DNA from: a virus
Lineage: Duplodnaviria > Heunggongvirae > Uroviricota > Caudoviricetes
IMG/VR virus record: IMGVR_UViG_3300029742_000228
Span: 1-10,144 of that record
Length of the DNA: 10,144 nt
Direction: 5' to 3' (one strand)
Shown here: piece after piece, positions 1 through 10,144 of the stretch
Position numbering within the stretch: position 1 is the stretch's first letter
How the letters are laid out: each line of letters starts with the position of its first letter
Program-made: the position numbers and the translations under genes
The notes under the pieces: model-generated
The model's database searches: none
The model's input: only the letters and a program-made list of their open reading frames with translations
What the model was told of the DNA's origin: nothing

Positions 1-584
1 ATCATCCACCCAACTTAACTGAAACCAGGATGAAGTATATGCATATAAAGTTCACTTTGCCAAACGTCAGTATAAAAAACCACATAAAAAATAGGGTGTG
101 ATAAAAAATACCGTAACAATAAAGCAAAGGATTATAAATTCCGTTACAGTTACAAATGATACTCAAGAAACAATTCCTTAGGAAAAACTTATTTACAGCC
201 AATAAGTAAGACACTTATATGATATCAAGTTTTCATAAAACATAACTAGGCTAAATAGCTGCGCCTAATACCGCTACACTTTTGCCAGCCCATGTTTGCC
301 TCCGGGTATTGACCCCTTCTCTACGCAACTTCAGTTCCCACCACCAACTTTGCGGCAGCTTTGTAGGATCAATGTCTAAAAGAATAATGGTGACCGATAA
401 GAAAACGACTGAATAACTGCAAATTTTCGCTCAAAACCTTCCTGTCAGATCCATAGCGAATCAAGTGCTGAATGTCACAGTATCAAACAGAAAACAGTGA
501 CGATCTAACCCTTCAAGAATATTCTACGATTGTTCTGTTTAGGAAAAGCAAGGCGGGAAGTCGGGAGATAAGTCATTGATAAAG

Positions 585-646
585 TGGCGGAGAGAGGGGG
601 ATTTGAACCCCCGGTAGAGTTGCCCCTACTCCGGTTTTCGAGACCG
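585..646 (-). tRNA. Partial tRNA-Ser (anticodon CGA, serU-like): 3' portion only, from anticodon loop through variable arm, T-arm and acceptor CCA; 5' half absent. Interpreted as the att core duplicate at the prophage end.
   Basis: Reverse complement of 585-646 reads CGGTCTCGAAAACCGGAGTAGGGGCAACTCTACCGGGGGTTCAAATCCCCCTCTCTCCGCCA: anticodon loop CUCGAAA, long variable arm typical of tRNA-Ser, T-arm GGGGGTTCAAATCCCCC, 3' CCA. It matches my recollection of E. coli serU. The match stops at 646/647, so the D-arm and 5' acceptor strand are missing. Confidence 0.75.
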
Positions 647-1075
647 ATGATACAGAGTCGAAAAATCAAAGAGTTAAAAATTTCTCTTGGAATAAATGTC
701 TTAAAATTGTACACGAAAAATCAATGAATTACATAACATTAAAGAAGAATATTCCAAGCCTTCTTGAGGCTACCACCTGTTTTCAGGTGTCATTCAGACG
801 TGATTTGCCCCAGATTGGGAAAGCACGCTTTTTTCTCAGCTATCGCCCTCTTATTTTGCCGTTACATTTCTTTTTGCACTCTAATGATTAATTTACAATA
901 ATAATATCGGTAATTATTGAGTAATAATAAATTGATTATTGCAAATGTAATTTAATTCCATCTTCGCGTTATATTCCAATCTTTAATCTCCGCATGGAAC
1001 AAGTTGCATGCGTGACTATATTAAGACAACTTATAACCACCAAAACATTTGCTTTGCAAGCAAAAACAGTGACCA

Positions 1076-1104
1076 TTGACTCTAAGAAAATTCCGATCTA
1101 TTGT
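1076..1104 (+). promoter_or_regulatory. Candidate sigma70-like promoter: -35 TTGACT (1076-1081), 17-bp spacer, -10 TATTGT (1099-1104)
   Basis: Hexamers read directly from the sequence, located about 35 nt upstream of the small ORF at 1139. AT-rich context makes chance matches common. Confidence 0.2.
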
Positions 1105-1138
1105 TAGGATCATCAAAGTTACTTAACAGTATTCCGAA

Positions 1139-1240
1139 ATGAAAATACAAAGCAAGCTAATTGTCTTATTAAACATTATCATTGCATTTATATTATTTGA
1201 GCTTTTAGCTCAAAAATTTGGTTTGAGTACATTATTTTAA
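1139..1240 (+). CDS. Hypothetical 33-aa hydrophobic peptide (MKIQSKLIVLLNIIIAFILFELLAQKFGLSTLF); possible small membrane protein or type I toxin-like moron, or a chance ORF in AT-rich DNA
   Basis: ATG at 1139, TAA at 1238-1240. Lys-containing N-terminus followed by a roughly 18-residue hydrophobic stretch. No strong Shine-Dalgarno. Candidate promoter upstream and a plus-strand terminator downstream. Confidence 0.2.
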   Translation: MKIQSKLIVLLNIIIAFILFELLAQKFGLSTLF

Positions 1241-1389
1241 AGCAAGATAAACAATATCGGGCACTCTAGTTTTTATAATTAACAATTAAACGTCCATAAA
1301 ATGTTATTTACTTTTCTTCGCTATTGTCATATCTTAATATAGTGGCTTACGCCACTCTACTTTCATCACATTTTGTACGTTTATGTACT

Positions 1390-1422
1390 CGCCATGAAGC
1401 TCTTTCATGGCGATTTTTTATT
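1390..1422 (+). terminator. Rho-independent terminator-like hairpin (stem CGCCATGAA / TTCATGGCG, loop GCTCT) followed by ATTTTTTATT
   Basis: Perfect 9-bp stem at 1390-1398 and 1404-1412 followed by a T-run on the plus strand. The minus-strand side lacks a U-run, so it appears to be plus-oriented. Confidence 0.5.
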
Positions 1423-1505
1423 CTTAATCCAAGAACATACTCCCTACCTATAGCAAAATCACTTTTTTAACAAAAGAATAACGTATTTAGGTAATCATTA
1501 CGAAT

Positions 1506-1640
1506 TTACCCTATAGGTGCTACTGGCCATTCAATATCCGGTGCAGTTGATGTATCAACACGGTTCAGCAACACCCGATACTTTTTCCAGGCTTCCAGCA
1601 ACGAGTTTTCTTCCTCCGTTGCGATCTCCAGCTCAACAAC
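1506..1640 (-). pseudogene. tfa: 3' remnant of a tail fibre assembly (Tfa) gene: last ~45 codons only, with no start and no N-terminal domain
   Basis: Minus-strand translation gives ...[42 protein letters not shown], stop at 1506-1508. This matches the conserved C-terminus of lambda-family Tfa proteins as I recall it. It lies in the same frame as, and immediately after, the TGA stop of the upstream fibre ORF. Confidence 0.6.
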
Positions 1641-1685: not shown

Positions 1686-3863
1686 TCAATGTTCGCTTCC
1701 TGTTAACTGCCGGACAAGTGCAACCAGTTCGCTTACCTGATTTTCCAGAGTGCTGATCCGGGTGCCTGCTGTTGCCAGATTTTGACGTAGCGTTGTGTTT
1801 TCCTCTTCCAGCGCGGTAACGCGATCATCTGTTTCACGGGCGACCTGAACAAGTAAACCTGTCACGGCAGAGTAGTCAACATTAAGATAGCGCGTTTCTT
1901 CGCGTAGCTCGTTGCCGTCAACGGTCGGACCTTGCAACTCTTCACCGTAATGAGTAAACGATCCCACAGCTTCTGGTATCGCCTCCATTACTTCCTGTGC
2001 AATAACGCCAGCATAAGGCATCCCGTTGTCCTTGAACGTGTAGGTGTATCCGTTCATTTTACGGATTGCTTTCGTCGCGTCGCTGATAACGAGAATATCG
2101 TCTTTAAGGTCGCGGTCTGATGACTGATTCAGCGTTGTGCAATTAATAGCGCCATTTACATCAAACAACTGGCCTGCTGACGTTTTTTGCGCATAAAACA
2201 GATACGCAGCAGACGTTCCAACCTCAAAAACGTTTTGTCGATCACTTGATCCCCATACTTTTGCGGCAAATGATAGTTCTGTATTACCTAAGTTCTGTAA
2301 AACAAAACGATTGCCAGTCCCTGATTGCTTTGTAAGGGTTAAATCAACAGTTGAGTTAACCTCATCCTTGTTGATAGTGAGCGCCTGCGCTTTAGCCCCG
2401 TTAACAGCACCTGTTTTGAGTTGAACCGCGCCGTCATTACCATTTAGCAGTATCTCAGCTCCGCTAAAGAAATTTTTTAGCGACAGCATCTTACTTACGC
2501 CGACTGATGAACCCAACGCCCACGCGAGAGAATTACCGGTGCTATCAAACCCACGTACAAAGCAATCCATTTTGCTATAGTCTGACGTGCTTCCAAGGAC
2601 ATCAATTCGCCCTCCGCCAGATTTTACCGGGTTAGATGTGGTTAATGACCTGACAGCAAGATCGGTAGATGCATTGAGATCGTCTACTGTTAATAGTCGT
2701 TTCCATCCCTTATCAACCCCAGCCTCAAAGCTTCTTGCCCAAAATTTGGAGTTGCGACCGGCGAATTGTGTGACGTAATTACCGCTAAATTGAGCATGGA
2801 ATCCGCCAACAACCATTGTTCCGTCAGGACCGCCTGCGCTCCCTGCTATTGGCTTAAACTTATTTACATTCTCTGTATGTTGAGTGCTCCAGTTTTGCCC
2901 TGTGTGAACAACCAATCCCTGATAAGAACTGAAGGTACCATCAAGGTTAAAATTAAAGAACTTACTGTTCCCTGAATTATTTATGTCCCTGACAACAATT
3001 TCACCAGAAGCGTTAGCGGCCCTTAGTTCAGTTTGATCGACAACCGGACCTCCTTCGGATTGTAATCTTTGAGAAACAAATGTTCTGTTTGAAGCGTCCG
3101 TACCGTACGCGGTGAAAGATTGTGTTGCTTTAATCTGACCATTGTTTACAAATATAGGAATAGTGACGGTAAAATTTTTGTCAAAACTCAGGCCATTTGT
3201 TAATGCAATCCTTTCTGACACCCCTTGTCTGAACGGAAGGTTGCTGTAGAAGCCATGTTCACCGCCAGTGAAGTCAAGAACATTTTTAACAAAGTTCTTG
3301 TCGTTATCCTCCGTTGACGTTGATACACCAAACTTATATCTAACCCCGTTGTCACCAATTACGTAGTCTTCTGTTGGAACCTTAACTTTTGCCTTGTAGC
3401 CAGTTTGCACAACGACAGGAAAAGCGCTTTTATGGATGTAGAAAGCTACATGCTGCGCATAATCTCTTTGCGACGCTTTAATGCAAAGTATCCCGAGTTC
3501 ATTTTTTTCATAGCAAACAAATGACCCGTAAGCCACATCGCGAACGTCACTCCAGCCACCGCATCGAAAATATCCACTAAATGTATTGCTATTAAGCGGG
3601 TCTGATGATAAACGTCCTGCTGTTTTTATATCAATAGGACATGTCAGGTTGCCGTAACCTTCCATTGCGGATGTGTCTATTATGACAGGGTAGTATTTGC
3701 CATCCACTGCACCACCAGGTGCATTAATGGTCATCGCTTTTGTTAACCCACCCTCAGGGATTTGCAAATTAGTTTTGGCGTCATCAAGGCTATTTGCGCC
3801 AGTGCCACCATGAGAAACATCAAGTGGTATCCATTTTTTTGTGTGTCGCTGTAACACCCCCAT
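1686..3863 (-). CDS. Tail fibre / tailspike distal (receptor-binding) protein with a C-terminal intramolecular chaperone auto-processing domain (Peptidase S74 type), 725 aa
   Basis: Long minus-strand ORF. The C-terminal ~144 aa contain S-D-R-D-L-K (Ser-Lys dyad spacing), GYTYTFKDNG, GVIAQEVMEAIPEAV and a terminal coiled-coil-like segment, the hallmark of self-cleaving fibre chaperone domains. The N-terminus contains a GGTGA-type fibre motif. This stretch looks more AT-rich than the J region. Confidence 0.8.
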   Translation of the reverse strand: MGVLQRHTKKWIPLDVSHGGTGANSLDDAKTNLQIPEGGLTKAMTINAPGGAVDGKYYPVIIDTSAMEGYGNLTCPIDIKTAGRLSSDPLNSNTFSGYFRCGGWSDVRDVAYGSFVCYEKNELGILCIKASQRDYAQHVAFYIHKSAFPVVVQTGYKAKVKVPTEDYVIGDNGVRYKFGVSTSTEDNDKNFVKNVLDFTGGEHGFYSNLPFRQGVSERIALTNGLSFDKNFTVTIPIFVNNGQIKATQSFTAYGTDASNRTFVSQRLQSEGGPVVDQTELRAANASGEIVVRDINNSGNSKFFNFNLDGTFSSYQGLVVHTGQNWSTQHTENVNKFKPIAGSAGGPDGTMVVGGFHAQFSGNYVTQFAGRNSKFWARSFEAGVDKGWKRLLTVDDLNASTDLAVRSLTTSNPVKSGGGRIDVLGSTSDYSKMDCFVRGFDSTGNSLAWALGSSVGVSKMLSLKNFFSGAEILLNGNDGAVQLKTGAVNGAKAQALTINKDEVNSTVDLTLTKQSGTGNRFVLQNLGNTELSFAAKVWGSSDRQNVFEVGTSAAYLFYAQKTSAGQLFDVNGAINCTTLNQSSDRDLKDDILVISDATKAIRKMNGYTYTFKDNGMPYAGVIAQEVMEAIPEAVGSFTHYGEELQGPTVDGNELREETRYLNVDYSAVTGLLVQVARETDDRVTALEEENTTLRQNLATAGTRISTLENQVSELVALVRQLTGSEH
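1689..2120 (-). other. Peptidase S74 / intramolecular chaperone domain of the fibre protein; predicted autocleavage at the Ser encoded at 2118-2120
   Basis: The motif SSDRDLKDDI is encoded at about 2090-2125 on the minus strand (tca tca gac cgc gac ctt). Everything downstream to the stop would be the released chaperone. Confidence 0.7.
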
Positions 3864-5287
3864 GTTGATCCGGTTAAACCCAGGCGCATGGATTTATCAT
3901 GGTTATATAACCATGTTTCGCTATTCCATTGGTCAAGACGGTCCACTTCATTTTTGCGAGCGTGGCGTGTCCATTGCGGGCCTGTTGTCGGACTCCAGCG
4001 ATAGGTATAAAGCGAGCGAGTAGTCCATCCCTGAAATACACCTGTATACGCTGGAGTTCCATCTACCTGACTAATAAACCCCGTAAGACTGCTTTCACCG
4101 GATGCAATAGACGGGAAACCTGTTGCATCAGCCATGATGCGCATAAAGCCAATATAACCTGATGGATTTCCTGAGATGTCAGAGCAACCACGCGGTGATG
4201 ATCCCAAACCGATGTTAGTACCAACAATACCCTGGGCCTGGTTGCGATAATTAAGTGCGTCCGCCGCAGATTTCGCCGCGTTTGTTTCACTGGATTTAGC
4301 ATTAGTTTCGCTGGCTTTAGCGTTTGTTTCGCTGCTCTTTGCTGCTGCCTCGCTATTTTTCGCGTTGGTTTCTGATTTTTTGGCTGCTGTCGCGGAGTTT
4401 GCCGATGCAGTTTGTGAGTCTGCTGCCGCCTGTGCGCTGTTATCCGCATTCGTCTCAGACGTTTTTGCGGCCTTCGCGGAATTTCCTGCCGCCGTTGCCG
4501 AGGAAGCTGCACTACTGGCACTTGATGATGCGTTCGTTTCTGATGATTTCGCTACCTCTTTTGAGGCCGCCGCATCCCGGGCTGAGGTGGCAGCTTCTGA
4601 CGCTTTCGTGGTCGCGGTGGATGCAGAAGTAGCTGCAGATTTTTGTGACACTGCAGCATTCGTTTCTGACGTTTTCGCCGCACCGGCACTGGTGGCCGCC
4701 GCGCTTTTTGAGGACTCTGCAGCGGCAGCACTTTTTGATGCTTCAGTGGCCTTTGTTGATGCCGTTCCTGCGCTGGAAGACGCTGACTGAGCCGACGACG
4801 CGGCCTGTCCGGCTGACGTGCTGGCTGCGCGTGCTGAGCCTGCAGCATCAGTCGCATGGGTTGCCGCCTCACGGGCTGATGTGCCGGCATCGCTGGCTGA
4901 CTTCTTCGCGGCTGCCGTGTTCTGTGCCACTGCGGACGCGTTACGCGCCACCTCTTCCACCATCAGTTCAAAGCGGCGCAGTGCCTCCGGACGGGCATCA
5001 TCCTCCGTCATGGCACCGAGAAAATCATTCAGCGTACCCGGTTGTGAGTCTTCATACACGGTGATGGTCCCGGCATGCGATGGCGGGAAGCCTTCCACCA
5101 TCAGAATAACGCTGTACTGACCGTACTCAACGTCCATGCTGTAACGCCCGGCTTCATCCGGATTTTCTGAGGCCACCGTGTTCACCACCACCGTGGTGCT
5201 GTTACGTTTTGCTTTCAGCTGGATTGTGCAGTTCTGTACCGGTTTACCTGCACCGTCTTTCAGTACACCTGAAATCTTTACTGCCAT
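3743..5287 (-). CDS. stf: Side tail fibre protein, N-terminal/shaft part: lambda Stf-like N-terminus, then an Ala/Ser/Thr-rich heptad repeat region, then a non-lambda segment. Its last ~40 codons overlap the next ORF out of frame.
   Basis: Translation begins MAVKISGVLKDGAGKPVQNCTIQLKAKRNSTTVVVNTVASENPDEAGRYSMDVEYGQYSV..., near-identical to my recollection of the lambda Stf N-terminus. ATG at 5285-5287, preceded by GGGGTG. The ORF track's start at 5293 is an upstream GTG. Confidence 0.8.
   Translation of the reverse strand: MAVKISGVLKDGAGKPVQNCTIQLKAKRNSTTVVVNTVASENPDEAGRYSMDVEYGQYSVILMVEGFPPSHAGTITVYEDSQPGTLNDFLGAMTEDDARPEALRRFELMVEEVARNASAVAQNTAAAKKSASDAGTSAREAATHATDAAGSARAASTSAGQAASSAQSASSSAGTASTKATEASKSAAAAESSKSAAATSAGAAKTSETNAAVSQKSAATSASTATTKASEAATSARDAAASKEVAKSSETNASSSASSAASSATAAGNSAKAAKTSETNADNSAQAAADSQTASANSATAAKKSETNAKNSEAAAKSSETNAKASETNAKSSETNAAKSAADALNYRNQAQGIVGTNIGLGSSPRGCSDISGNPSGYIGFMRIMADATGFPSIASGESSLTGFISQVDGTPAYTGVFQGWTTRSLYTYRWSPTTGPQWTRHARKNEVDRLDQWNSETWLYNHDKSMRLGLTGSTWGCYSDTQKNGYHLMFLMVALAQIALMTPKLICKSLRVG
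3898..3915. repeat. Perfect 18-bp palindrome CATGGTTATATAACCATG
   Basis: Read directly from the sequence. It lies 35 nt upstream of the ATG of the distal fibre ORF, inside the 3' part of the stf ORF, and causes the mirrored HGYITM peptides in the spurious ORFs on both strands. Confidence 0.9.
4253..4936 (-). repeat. Low-complexity tandem repeat region inside stf encoding Ala/Ser/Thr-rich 7-residue units (e.g. KSSETNA, KASETNA, KNSEAAA); about 21-nt DNA periodicity
   Basis: Repeated GCGAAAC(T/A)AA(T/C)GC-type units are visible on the plus strand around 4262-4400. The protein shows heptad periodicity across roughly residues 118-345. Confidence 0.6.
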
Positions 5288-5297
5288 ATTCACCCCA

Positions 5298-5351: not shown

Positions 5352-5951
5352 TCAGAACTTATAACCGACACCCACGATGAAACCGTCAGTGCGCCAGTCG
5401 CCACTGCCGGAGCCTTCATAAGCAATATCAATGGCCACGGATTCGGTCGGGTTAAACTGCACGCCAGCCCCCCACGCCAGAGACGTGTTGCTGCGGCGAC
5501 CGTCATCACTTCCGGTCAGCACTTCGTGCGTTTTCCCCTTGTTGTCAGTTACGCGGAGATAATCCCCGGAGAAAGTCGAAATACGGCTGTAAGCCACACC
5601 CGCCATCGCATACGCGCTGAACCATTCATTCACGCGCACAGACGGCCCCGCCATCACGCTGAACCAGCGGTTACGCACGGAATCTTCATGCCAGCGGGTA
5701 TCGCTGTAATGAGTCAGCTGGCGATTCTTGTCTTCTGCATAGCTGAATGACGTCACCATCCCCAGCGTGTCCGTAAACTCATAACGGTATTTCACGTTAA
5801 TCCCGTTAAGATCATCACTGCCGGGAACGTTGGTCCGGGCATGAAGATACCCCGCGCTCAGCGTGGACTGATGTTCAGACGCCCATGCAGGCGCACAGGA
5901 TACGGCCAGACAAATGGCTGCGGACAAAATGGCGGCATAAAGTTTACGCAT
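5352..5951 (-). CDS. lom: Lom, Ail/Lom-family outer membrane beta-barrel protein (lysogenic-conversion moron), 199 aa with signal peptide
   Basis: Translation MRKLYAAILSAAICLAVSCAPAWASEHQSTLSAGYLHA...DGFIVGVGYKF matches lambda Lom as I recall it, including the C-terminal aromatic residue typical of OMPs. Shine-Dalgarno GAGAGG upstream of the ATG at 5949-5951. Confidence 0.9.
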   Translation of the reverse strand: MRKLYAAILSAAICLAVSCAPAWASEHQSTLSAGYLHARTNVPGSDDLNGINVKYRYEFTDTLGMVTSFSYAEDKNRQLTHYSDTRWHEDSVRNRWFSVMAGPSVRVNEWFSAYAMAGVAYSRISTFSGDYLRVTDNKGKTHEVLTGSDDGRRSNTSLAWGAGVQFNPTESVAIDIAYEGSGSGDWRTDGFIVGVGYKF

Positions 5952-6017: not shown

Positions 6018-9412
<3,395 letters not shown>

Positions 9413-9472
9413 TCGTCATGCTCCATAAACGATAAAACCGCCCGGAGGCGGTTTCACATAAAACATTTTGCA

Positions 9473-10144
9473 TCAGCGACCAATCACCACAACCTGACCA
9501 CCATCCCCTTCGTCTGCCGTGCTGATCTCCTGAGAAACCACCCGCGACCCCACGCGCATTTCACCGTACAGAACAGGCAAAACATTGCCCTGGGCAACCA
9601 TGTTATCCAGTGAGGAGAAATAGGTGTTCTGCTTACCGTTATCCGTTGTCTGTGTACGGGGAGTTCTGGCTTTCGGTGCCAGCATCTGCGCCACACCACC
9701 GAGCACCATACTGGCACCGAGAGAAAACAGGATGCCGGTCATACCACCAGCCCCAATGGCTGCCCCCCATGCTGCAAGGGTGGCTCCGGCGGTAAAGAAT
9801 GATCCGGCAATGGCGGCAGCCCCCAGGACAATCTGGAATACGCCACCTGACTTGGCCCCGGCGACTCTGGGAACAATATGAATCACAGCGCCATCAGGCA
9901 GAGTCTCATGTAACTGCGCCGTTAACCCGGACGTGCTGACGTCCCGCCCGGCAATCCGTACCTGATACCAGCCGTCGCTCAGTTTCTGACGAAACGCCGG
10001 GAGCTGTGTGGCCAGTGCCCGGATGGCTTCAGCCCCCGTTTTCACACGAAGGTCGATGCGGCGACCAAATCGTTGTAAATCCCCGTAAAGGCAGATGCGC
10101 GCCATGCCCGGTGACGCCAGAGGGAGTGTGTGCGTCGCTGCCAT
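9473..10144 (-). CDS. I: Tail assembly protein I (lambda gpI-like), 223 aa, complete; start codon at the last bases of the window
   Basis: Translation MAATHTLPLASPGMARICLYGDLQRFGRRIDLRVKTGAEAIRALATQLPAF... matches lambda gpI as I recall it. Stop at 9473-9475, ATG at 10142-10144. Confidence 0.9.
   Translation of the reverse strand: MAATHTLPLASPGMARICLYGDLQRFGRRIDLRVKTGAEAIRALATQLPAFRQKLSDGWYQVRIAGRDVSTSGLTAQLHETLPDGAVIHIVPRVAGAKSGGVFQIVLGAAAIAGSFFTAGATLAAWGAAIGAGGMTGILFSLGASMVLGGVAQMLAPKARTPRTQTTDNGKQNTYFSSLDNMVAQGNVLPVLYGEMRVGSRVVSQEISTADEGDGGQVVVIGR

Follow-up and report, generated by a model that had tools for sequence, protein, structure and literature searches.

In laboratory strains of bacteriophage lambda, the gene for the side tail fibres, stf, carries a frameshift mutation that blocks their synthesis and assembly, as reported (PMC12617516) and in agreement with the lambda annotation. 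The PaPa version of the gene, compared with that of Ur-lambda, consists of orf-401 and orf-314, and the distal half encoded by orf-314 resembles the tip of T4 gp37 (PMC12617516). We analysed a stretch of viral DNA of 10,144 nucleotides from IMG/VR, hereafter called the window, that carries the same gene at the same position (J, lom, stf, tfa) with the same kind of lesion, a frameshift, albeit at a different site. The N-terminal 284 residues of its product are 86% identical to lambda orf-401. In contrast, orf-314 has no significant similarity to the downstream open reading frame of the window (ORF2), and the distal modules thus differ. Lambda also has a full-length tail fibre assembly gene, orf-194, adjoining stf, whereas the window has a fibre ending in an S74 domain and a mere remnant of tfa.

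The side tail fibre of phage mEp460 (AFM76057.1) has the same neighbouring genes and the same 1200-residue architecture, with 96 to 97% amino acid identity in both halves. mEp460 is a viable phage with a run of eight A residues (A8) in this gene and one 1200-residue fibre protein. This architecture is shared by a RefSeq entry described as 'prophage tail fiber N-terminal domain and S74 family endopeptidase-containing protein' (WP_490187503.1). The genes for both proteins have A8 and are intact, whereas the window has seven A residues (A7). The lesion in the stf pseudogenes of Escherichia coli TUM1887, A35, A3024 and OkiPb01694 is identical to that of the window and lies on the same local haplotype.

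Indels in poly(A) tracts can be rescued by transcriptional slippage or -1 frameshifting (review, PMC5009743; genome survey, PMC1088944). The window likewise has an A-run with a 1-nt deletion in which one added A restores the frame. Unlike those systems, however, its run is only 7 nt long, with neither a conserved two-ORF design nor a stimulatory element, and we do not count it among them.

Layout of the gene and position of the lesion

The whole stf gene, a frameshifted pseudogene, lies at 1686..5287 on the minus strand and is 3602 nt long, one base fewer than the 3603-nt intact form. The upstream ORF (ORF1, 3743..5287, minus strand) encodes 514 residues, 484 native and 30 out of frame, followed by a stop; the ORF list extends it to 5293 with a GTG start, the ATG being two codons in at 5287. 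Its native part comprises a PF08400 anchor domain (prophage tail fibre N-terminal, residues 1-134, E = 4.5e-72, full model length), an Ala/Ser-rich shaft and a proximal globular part. ORF2 (1686..3863, minus strand), which opens with an ATG in the ORF list, encodes 725 residues: eight that lie outside the ancestral reading frame (MGVLQRHT), and the distal 717 residues of Stf, which take in the C-terminal S74 intramolecular chaperone domain. The overlap of about 120 nt noted in an earlier, sequence-only reading of the locus is real (3743-3863, 121 nt). That reading also placed correctly the stops that close the distal frame upstream (3894-3899 and 3903-3905) and the two runs recovered by homopolymer scan, a coding-strand G5 run at 3857-3861 and the A7 run at 3834-3840.

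When the frame was repaired, the protein carried PF08400 at its N-terminal end and matched Peptidase_S74 (PF13884) at residues 1057-1108 (E = 2.5e-13); an NCBIfam search with it gave no match. The fibre also has a weak match to the chaperone-bearing distal fibre 6f45. The gene order on the minus strand, J, lom, stf and the tfa remnant, is that of TUM1887, RMDEC332, mEp460 and lambda. By its PF08400 domain and its place in the tail operon, after J and lom, the gene is a lambdoid stf, and by its C-terminal Peptidase_S74 domain it belongs to the fibres and spikes with an S74 chaperone. In such proteins the chaperone is released by autoproteolysis after trimerisation. The full-length fibre would have a size of about 125 kDa before chaperone cleavage; in the A7 allele, the N-terminal part and the S74 domain do not even belong to one ORF. 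The remnant of the tail fibre assembly gene, its C-terminal 43 codons, lies just downstream of stf at 1506..1637 (minus strand). It matches tail fibre assembly families of PHROG with E about 1e-17, and PGAP, the annotation pipeline of NCBI, lists it as a pseudogene in TUM1887, A35 and others. Nothing in Rfam matched anywhere in the window.

The lesion is a coding-strand A7 run (T7 on the plus strand) at 3834..3840, where intact alleles have A8. Alignment with intact relatives showed flanks that are otherwise identical, the codons CAA AAA AAA TGG (Q K K W) having become CAA AAA AAT GG. In a MAFFT alignment of 15 full-length alleles, the single indel column among 3603 was at the A-run, and all 10 A8 alleles were uninterrupted ORFs of 1200 codons. 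BLASTP comparisons with mEp460 Stf matched residues 1-484 of ORF1 to residues 1-484 (468/484 identical), with nothing matched beyond, and residues 9-725 of ORF2 to residues 484-1200 (689/717 identical). The homology thus changes frame exactly at K484/K485. Both ORFs are certainly coding, as judged from these alignments, because they cover consecutive parts of that protein at 96-97% identity. They also map onto consecutive stretches of one 1210-position PHROG, the match of ORF2 to PHROG 6578 covering positions 512-1210.

The out-of-frame tail of the truncated product is encoded at 3743..3833 (minus strand) and reads NGYHLMFLMVALAQIALMTPKLICKSLRVG before the stop, whereas the same DNA translated in the ancestral frame encodes WIPLDVSHGGTGANSLDDAKTNLQ.... 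The tail that follows K484 is NGYHLMFLMVALAQIALMTPK, and the junction peptide of the frame-restored, full-length fibre would be ...CYSDTQKKWIPLDVSHGGTGANSLDDAK. The end of ORF1 had been described as non-protein-like over some 40 residues; it is indeed out of frame, but over 30 residues (NGYHL...SLRVG). Genuine fibre sequence, which had been thought to begin at the ATG of ORF2, begins at KKWIPLD instead. The shift had been confined to 3863-3893 because this ATG was taken as necessarily kept; a shift anywhere in 3743-3893 is permissible, and by alignment the missing base falls at 3834-3840, in the A-run that had been named only as adjoining. A shift within 3863-3893 or at the G5 run is rejected, as A8 and A7 alleles do not differ there.

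In close relatives the gene is thus a single ORF without interruption, and the split is explained by one indel, as expected of a frameshift pseudogene. The comparison with homologs that had been proposed returned single 1200-residue proteins, and of the explanations then offered, the evidence favours a genuine frameshift mutation as in the stf gene of laboratory lambda. In all likelihood, the two ORFs represent one stf gene of a lambdoid E. coli prophage, broken by a 1-nt deletion and inherited as a frameshift pseudogene.

Shared descent of the A7 allele

A7 was found on the same local haplotype in the four complete E. coli genomes named above and in an IMG/VR contig (L028). TUM1887 matches the window over 9.6 kb with 100% identity, and its stf copy is 99.94% identical over the gene, without gaps. 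It is nevertheless a different genome, with a deletion absent from the window that affects gene I, which the window retains. The other assemblies with A7 on this haplotype are from Australia, China and Japan, with an IMG isolate in addition. Only 3 sites in stf nt 300-1740 distinguish the window from the A35 group, with 0 differences in the 300-nt block that holds the tract; from nt 1744 to 2400 of stf the A35 group carries another mosaic, and its tail genes up to J are missing. In a comparison over 701 nt, the four closest relatives of the window were the four A7 genomes.

The recurrence of the same allele on the same local haplotype in five other assemblies strongly indicates, at the level of sequence comparison, that A7 is shared by descent rather than a private assembly error. 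An undercall in the window, the true genome having A8 and an intact stf gene, is unlikely, even though several sequencing platforms commonly miscall A8 and A7 and strain 4012 has a singleton A7, as expected from error or private mutation. The presence of A7 in TUM1887 and in four further assemblies of the same local haplotype argues against it, as does the clustering of A7 by haplotype, which random errors would not produce. The sequence-only reading, which had considered a homopolymer error in a draft assembly, had pointed to an N-gap in the window; this run of N is a non-length-preserving gap or mask that lies in gene J, about 3.8 kb from the lesion, and has no connection with it.

PGAP annotates the TUM1887 copy as one 'frameshifted' CDS and gives the same label to the A35, A3024 and OkiPb01694 copies. 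The stf lesion is probably an ordinary inactivating mutation, and public annotation carries a flag for it in identical sequences. The four complete-genome carriers of the window haplotype have clearly defective prophages with large head and tail deletions, and thus the fibre gene would be under no selection in them.

A whole-gene neighbour-joining tree splits the A7 carriers of the window haplotype into two clades. We rejected separate origins, as both clades share the local haplotype and are set apart by the downstream mosaic; a single origin across both clades appears more likely from these comparisons. The A7 of strain 4012 is on a haplotype of its own, where the 11 closest copies listed are A8. 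It looks independent, and the deletion has probably occurred at least twice overall.

Recoding and two-gene alternatives

We surveyed the length of the tract in relatives. Among about 138 E. coli genomes, 5 had A7, and every other copy whose length was seen had A8 with a single ORF. Metagenome contigs all had A8 (8/8), as did 17 of 18 viral contigs, the remaining one having A7. A search for lengths of 5-11 nt in the metagenome and viral contigs returned A8 and the one A7 but neither A6 nor A9, and a search of the E. coli genomes for A9 gave no perfect copy. The frequent polymorphism in both directions of a phase-variable contingency locus is thus not seen, only A8 and rare A7; nor do the homologs conserve a two-ORF organisation with a slippery tract, as a programmed frameshift or slippage site would.

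These data bear on the possibility that slippage between A8 and A7 toggles the side fibres, or that A7 is read by -1 frameshifting or transcriptional slippage to give both a stump and the full-length fibre. A -1 slip on CAA AAA AAT, or one A added to the mRNA, would recreate the exact ancestral QKKW protein, the deletion has probably arisen at least twice (window haplotype and strain 4012), and 16 nt upstream of the run there is a G-rich sequence, GGGGGU, that resembles a Shine-Dalgarno. However, the flanks are the same in A8 alleles, where they merely code for protein, and the A7 carriers are decayed prophages. The efficient slippery heptamer of E. coli is A AAA AAG, whereas A AAA AAU is present here. 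As AAA is the preferred lysine codon of E. coli, A8 needs no special explanation. No stable RNA structure was found 3' of the run, where 94 nt folded no better than shuffles (z = +1.0), or around it (z = +0.5). Selection against slippage in bacterial genomes is evident from about 9 nt (PMC1088944), and A7 is below that approximate threshold. The locus thus has neither a stimulatory 3' element nor a tract of about 9 nt or more, and ribosomal frameshifting, another of the explanations offered earlier, finds no support as a programmed event. We regard a recoding or contingency locus as very unlikely. If A7 were read by slippage, the 'pseudogene' would yield a shaft stump and a working fibre; it is highly improbable that the A8 tract, ~55 nt upstream of the distal-module exchange junction, acts as a low-frequency side-fibre switch or that A7 gives a few per cent of full-length fibre.

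A normal two-gene arrangement, in which the distal fibre protein is initiated separately from the proximal one, could invoke the 725-codon ORF opened by the ATG at 3863 and the phages that assemble fibres from several proteins, but it is extremely improbable, as the 10/10 full-length A8 alleles, isolated phage mEp460 included, keep one frame throughout, homologs have nothing that corresponds to residues 1-8 of ORF2 and inspection of the sequence found no convincing Shine-Dalgarno ahead of that ATG. It is also refuted by the test set in the sequence-only reading, as the homologs do not show two genes. The earlier suggestion of two separately translated components fails for every relative inspected, since each crosses the junction in one frame, and the ATG at 3863 is fortuitous, not an ancestral start. 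Relatives annotated with two tail fibre CDSs (strains 673, 41 and DS26-1) do not represent a two-gene design but truncation elsewhere or differences in naming: in strain 673 the N-terminal part is cut short, in strain 41 there is a deletion at the 5' end, and neither changes frame across the junction.

Consequences of the deletion

The inherited 1-nt deletion most likely arose by slipped-strand mispairing while the homopolymer was replicated. The intact gene encodes one fibre of 1200 residues, with N-terminal tail attachment, the Ala/Ser-rich shaft, a distal receptor-binding part and the C-terminal S74 chaperone. After the deletion, translation is predicted to depart from the frame at codon 485 and to stop 30 codons on. 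The resulting 514-residue stump would keep the anchor and the shaft without the receptor-binding half and the chaperone domain, which fibres of the S74 class use to trimerise. Particles, if made, would therefore be without side fibres, like those of laboratory lambda. The distal ORF would be the stranded 3' part of stf rather than a gene of its own. Loss of stf function is expected from the sequence, although slippage on A7, whether transcriptional or -1 ribosomal, might still yield some full-length fibre, at most in traces.

The locus is best annotated as a single frameshifted stf pseudogene instead of two fibre genes, and the distal ATG should not be called a start. It offers a clear natural counterpart of the lambda PaPa stf lesion, with little significance beyond correct annotation. 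In host-range prediction or phage engineering, this copy is to be treated as fibreless, although its distal module is intact and recoverable by restoring one A. With probably two independent deletions in about 140 genomes, the coding A8 run represents a recurrent weak point of this fibre family.

Organization of the tail genes and of stf

The distal end of a lambdoid tail operon lies on the minus strand of the window, with gene I (partial, from 9473), J (6018-9416), lom (5352-5951), the side tail fibre gene stf and what remains of a tail fibre assembly (Tfa) gene (1506-1637; C-terminal 43 codons). The Tfa remnant, annotated in every relative inspected, lies directly downstream of a fibre with its own S74 chaperone and is probably a scar left when module exchange swapped out a distal end that depended on Tfa. 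The first 1.5 kb of the window (1-1500) are AT-rich, with a GC content of 31-42% versus 45-60% in the phage genes, and contain no ORF longer than 70 aa and no Rfam match. The counterpart of this region carries no annotation in the 15 E. coli genomes that match best, is conserved at 99% or more in approximately 97 genomes, and abuts an AraC-family regulator gene in strain TUM1887. The stretch may serve as a long region for regulation or H-NS binding, or may hold a small gene missed by annotation.

In the ORF list, stf is represented by ORF1 (3743..5293 from a GTG, the ATG of homologs being at 5287) and ORF2 (1686..3863, ATG start), both on the minus strand. The overlap of 121 nt agrees with the approximately 120 nt of an earlier, sequence-only reading, and the stops in the distal frame (3894-3899 and 3903-3905) and the homopolymers (G5 at 3857-3861; A7 at 3834-3840) were also found where that reading had put them. 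The Stf shaft (approximately 4200-4900, minus strand) is highly Ala/Ser/Thr-rich and imperfectly repetitive, with KSSETNA-type repeats; its DNA has a locally high GC content (57-62%) and a strong AT skew, and yields several long spurious ORFs on the opposite strand, e.g., 4365-4790 and 4645-5064.

Position of the frameshift

A 701-nt query spanning the junction matched 206 complete E. coli genomes. The four best matches (TUM1887, A35, A3024, and OkiPb01694) were of equal length, base for base, and the remaining full-length matches among those listed were all 702 nt. One 3603-nt CDS (1200 aa) covers the region in strain RMDEC332, where it is annotated as 'prophage tail fiber N-terminal domain and S74 family endopeptidase-containing protein', and in the isolated phage mEp460, where its annotation is 'side tail fiber protein', so the homologs are indeed a single protein of approximately 1200 aa, the check that the sequence-only reading had proposed. 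PGAP annotates one pseudogene noted 'frameshifted' in each of the four best-matching genomes. Other forms of stf decay occur, with a truncated N-terminal part in strain 673 and a 5′ deletion in strain 41; in none of the decayed-stf relatives inspected, these two included, does a gene begin at the counterpart of ATG 3863.

ORF1 residues 1-484 align to residues 1-484 of mEp460 Stf (468/484 identical), the rest being unaligned, and ORF2 residues 9-725 align to residues 484-1200 (689/717 identical). The two ORFs match consecutive parts of a single 1210-position PHROG family. The sole difference that matters in the junction alignment is a run of eight A on the coding strand (A8) in intact alleles versus seven (A7) in the window. 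This run is the only indel column among 3603 in a MAFFT alignment of 15 full-length alleles, in which the reading frame spans 1200 codons in each of the ten A8 alleles and meets a stop at codon 515 in each of the five with A7. Addition of one A restores ...GSTWGCYSDTQKKWIPLDVSHGGTGA... and a 1200-aa protein that carries PF08400 (residues 1-134) and Peptidase_S74 (residues 1057-1108). The shift had been confined to 3863-3893 because ATG 3863 was taken as ancestral; the alignment places it at the A-run instead. Nor is ORF2 genuine fibre sequence from its ATG onward, as its residues 1-8 are out of frame. The suspected non-protein-like end of ORF1 does exist as an out-of-frame tail, of 30 rather than approximately 40 residues.

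Probable inheritance of the A7 allele and alternative readings

Among 120 complete E. coli genomes with a window-type junction, four matched the A7 sequence perfectly. The other copies among the matches listed were all 78 nt (A8) except that of strain 4012, and an A9 query found no perfect match in 120 E. coli genomes. With a pattern allowing 5 to 11 nt, A8 was found in all eight metagenome contigs (A7 in none) and in 17 of 18 IMG/VR viral contigs, the other one having A7. Strain 4012 has different flanking SNPs and a different distal module, and its 11 closest copies listed are A8; its A7 probably arose by a separate deletion, or else that single assembly is in error. This distal module starts right after a conserved HGGTG motif, approximately 55 nt 3′ of the A-run. 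The A-run is a mild mutational weak point and is not hypervariable.

The A7 is very probably a genuine inherited mutation, one of the possibilities of the sequence-only reading (as in laboratory lambda), since it clusters on one haplotype. TUM1887 shares 9.6 kb with the window at 100% identity, A7 included. Its deletion junction, at approximately 9641-9645, is absent from the window, so the two are different genomes; the window continues into tail assembly gene I over 9641-10144, which makes its element the less decayed of the two, at any rate on this side. A7 is also present in A35, A3024, and OkiPb01694 (Australia, China, Japan) and in IMG/VR contig L028, which is 99.98% identical to A35. 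Over stf nt 300-1740 just three sites separate the window from the A35 group, none of them in the 300-nt block holding the A-run, and past nt 1744 the differences rise to as many as 74 sites per 300 nt, indicating that A7 lies on one shared haplotype later linked to other distal sequences. Within stf there are two sharp mosaic boundaries, at 3290-3545 and approximately 3780-3790 (stf nt 1744-2000 and approximately 1500), a case of classic tail-fibre module shuffling.

An assembly error in this particular record is improbable, as A7 is distributed by haplotype and random homopolymer miscalls would not sort into the four A7 genomes, which are the window's closest relatives in the 701-nt comparison. 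The 32-N run (7641-7672), suspected to betray a poor draft, sits in J and is unconnected to stf. It stands for approximately 36 nt of TUM1887 sequence, its length not being preserved, and this gap or mask is what makes J look like two ORFs, 6018-7622 and 7577-9412; in TUM1887, whose copy is otherwise identical, J is whole, with 3399 nt.

Functional slippage or phase variation at the A-run is very unlikely. A -1 ribosomal slip on CAA AAA AAU GG, or one A added by RNA polymerase, would restore exactly the ancestral QKKW protein, so that a trace of full-length Stf from the A7 allele is conceivable. Nothing suggests programmed recoding, however. The efficient E. coli slippery heptamer is A AAA AAG, not A AAA AAU. 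Folding of the 94 nt 3′ of the A-run is no more stable than that of shuffled sequence (z = +1.0), and the same holds for the region around the run (z = +0.5). The A8 alleles have the same flanks, which are plainly protein-coding there, and the two-ORF state is not conserved in relatives. Moreover, the run is 7 nt long, whereas selection against slippage-prone runs in bacterial genomes is evident from approximately 9 nt (PMC1088944). A design with separately translated proximal and distal fibre proteins is hardly credible, as the A8 alleles form one ORF and ORF2 has neither an ancestral start nor a convincing Shine-Dalgarno sequence.

Predicted consequences for the fibre and comparison with lambda

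Replication slippage would have removed one A from A8, so that translation would exit the frame at codon 485 and end 30 codons on. The 514-aa product would retain the tail-attachment domain and the Ala/Ser-rich shaft and would lack the distal receptor-binding half and the S74 intramolecular chaperone, which fibres of this class use to trimerise. By analogy with laboratory lambda, any particles made would be fibreless. The closest parallel is the stf gene of lambda PaPa, with the same kind of lesion in the same gene; there, a frameshift mutation prevents side-fibre synthesis (PMC12617516). Lambda PaPa stf is annotated as orf-401 plus orf-314, and the N-terminal 284 residues of the window Stf are 86% identical to orf-401. 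In contrast, the lesion is at another site, the distal half is a different module unrelated to orf-314, and the place of a full-length tfa gene is taken in the window by a self-chaperoning S74 end with a tfa remnant after it.

All four complete-genome carriers of the window's haplotype have it in defective prophages. In A35, A3024, and OkiPb01694, lom directly follows the head decoration gene, so that the major capsid gene and the tail genes are missing; in TUM1887, head genes are gone from the interval between the S49 protease and U, as are tail genes from that between U and J. A35 has a second, intact (A8) junction copy in another prophage (NZ_CP028740.1, 2434077-2434154), and recombination with it could in principle repair A7. 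TUM1887 stf, with the same lesion, is 99.94% identical to that of the window across the gene. As sequences with this lesion already stand in RefSeq as 'frameshifted' pseudogenes, there is nothing new here: the window stf is very probably an ordinary pseudogene of a kind annotated before, frameshifted at a homopolymer. In defective prophages like those of the four carriers, no selection acts on a fibre gene, in keeping with a neutral inactivating mutation.
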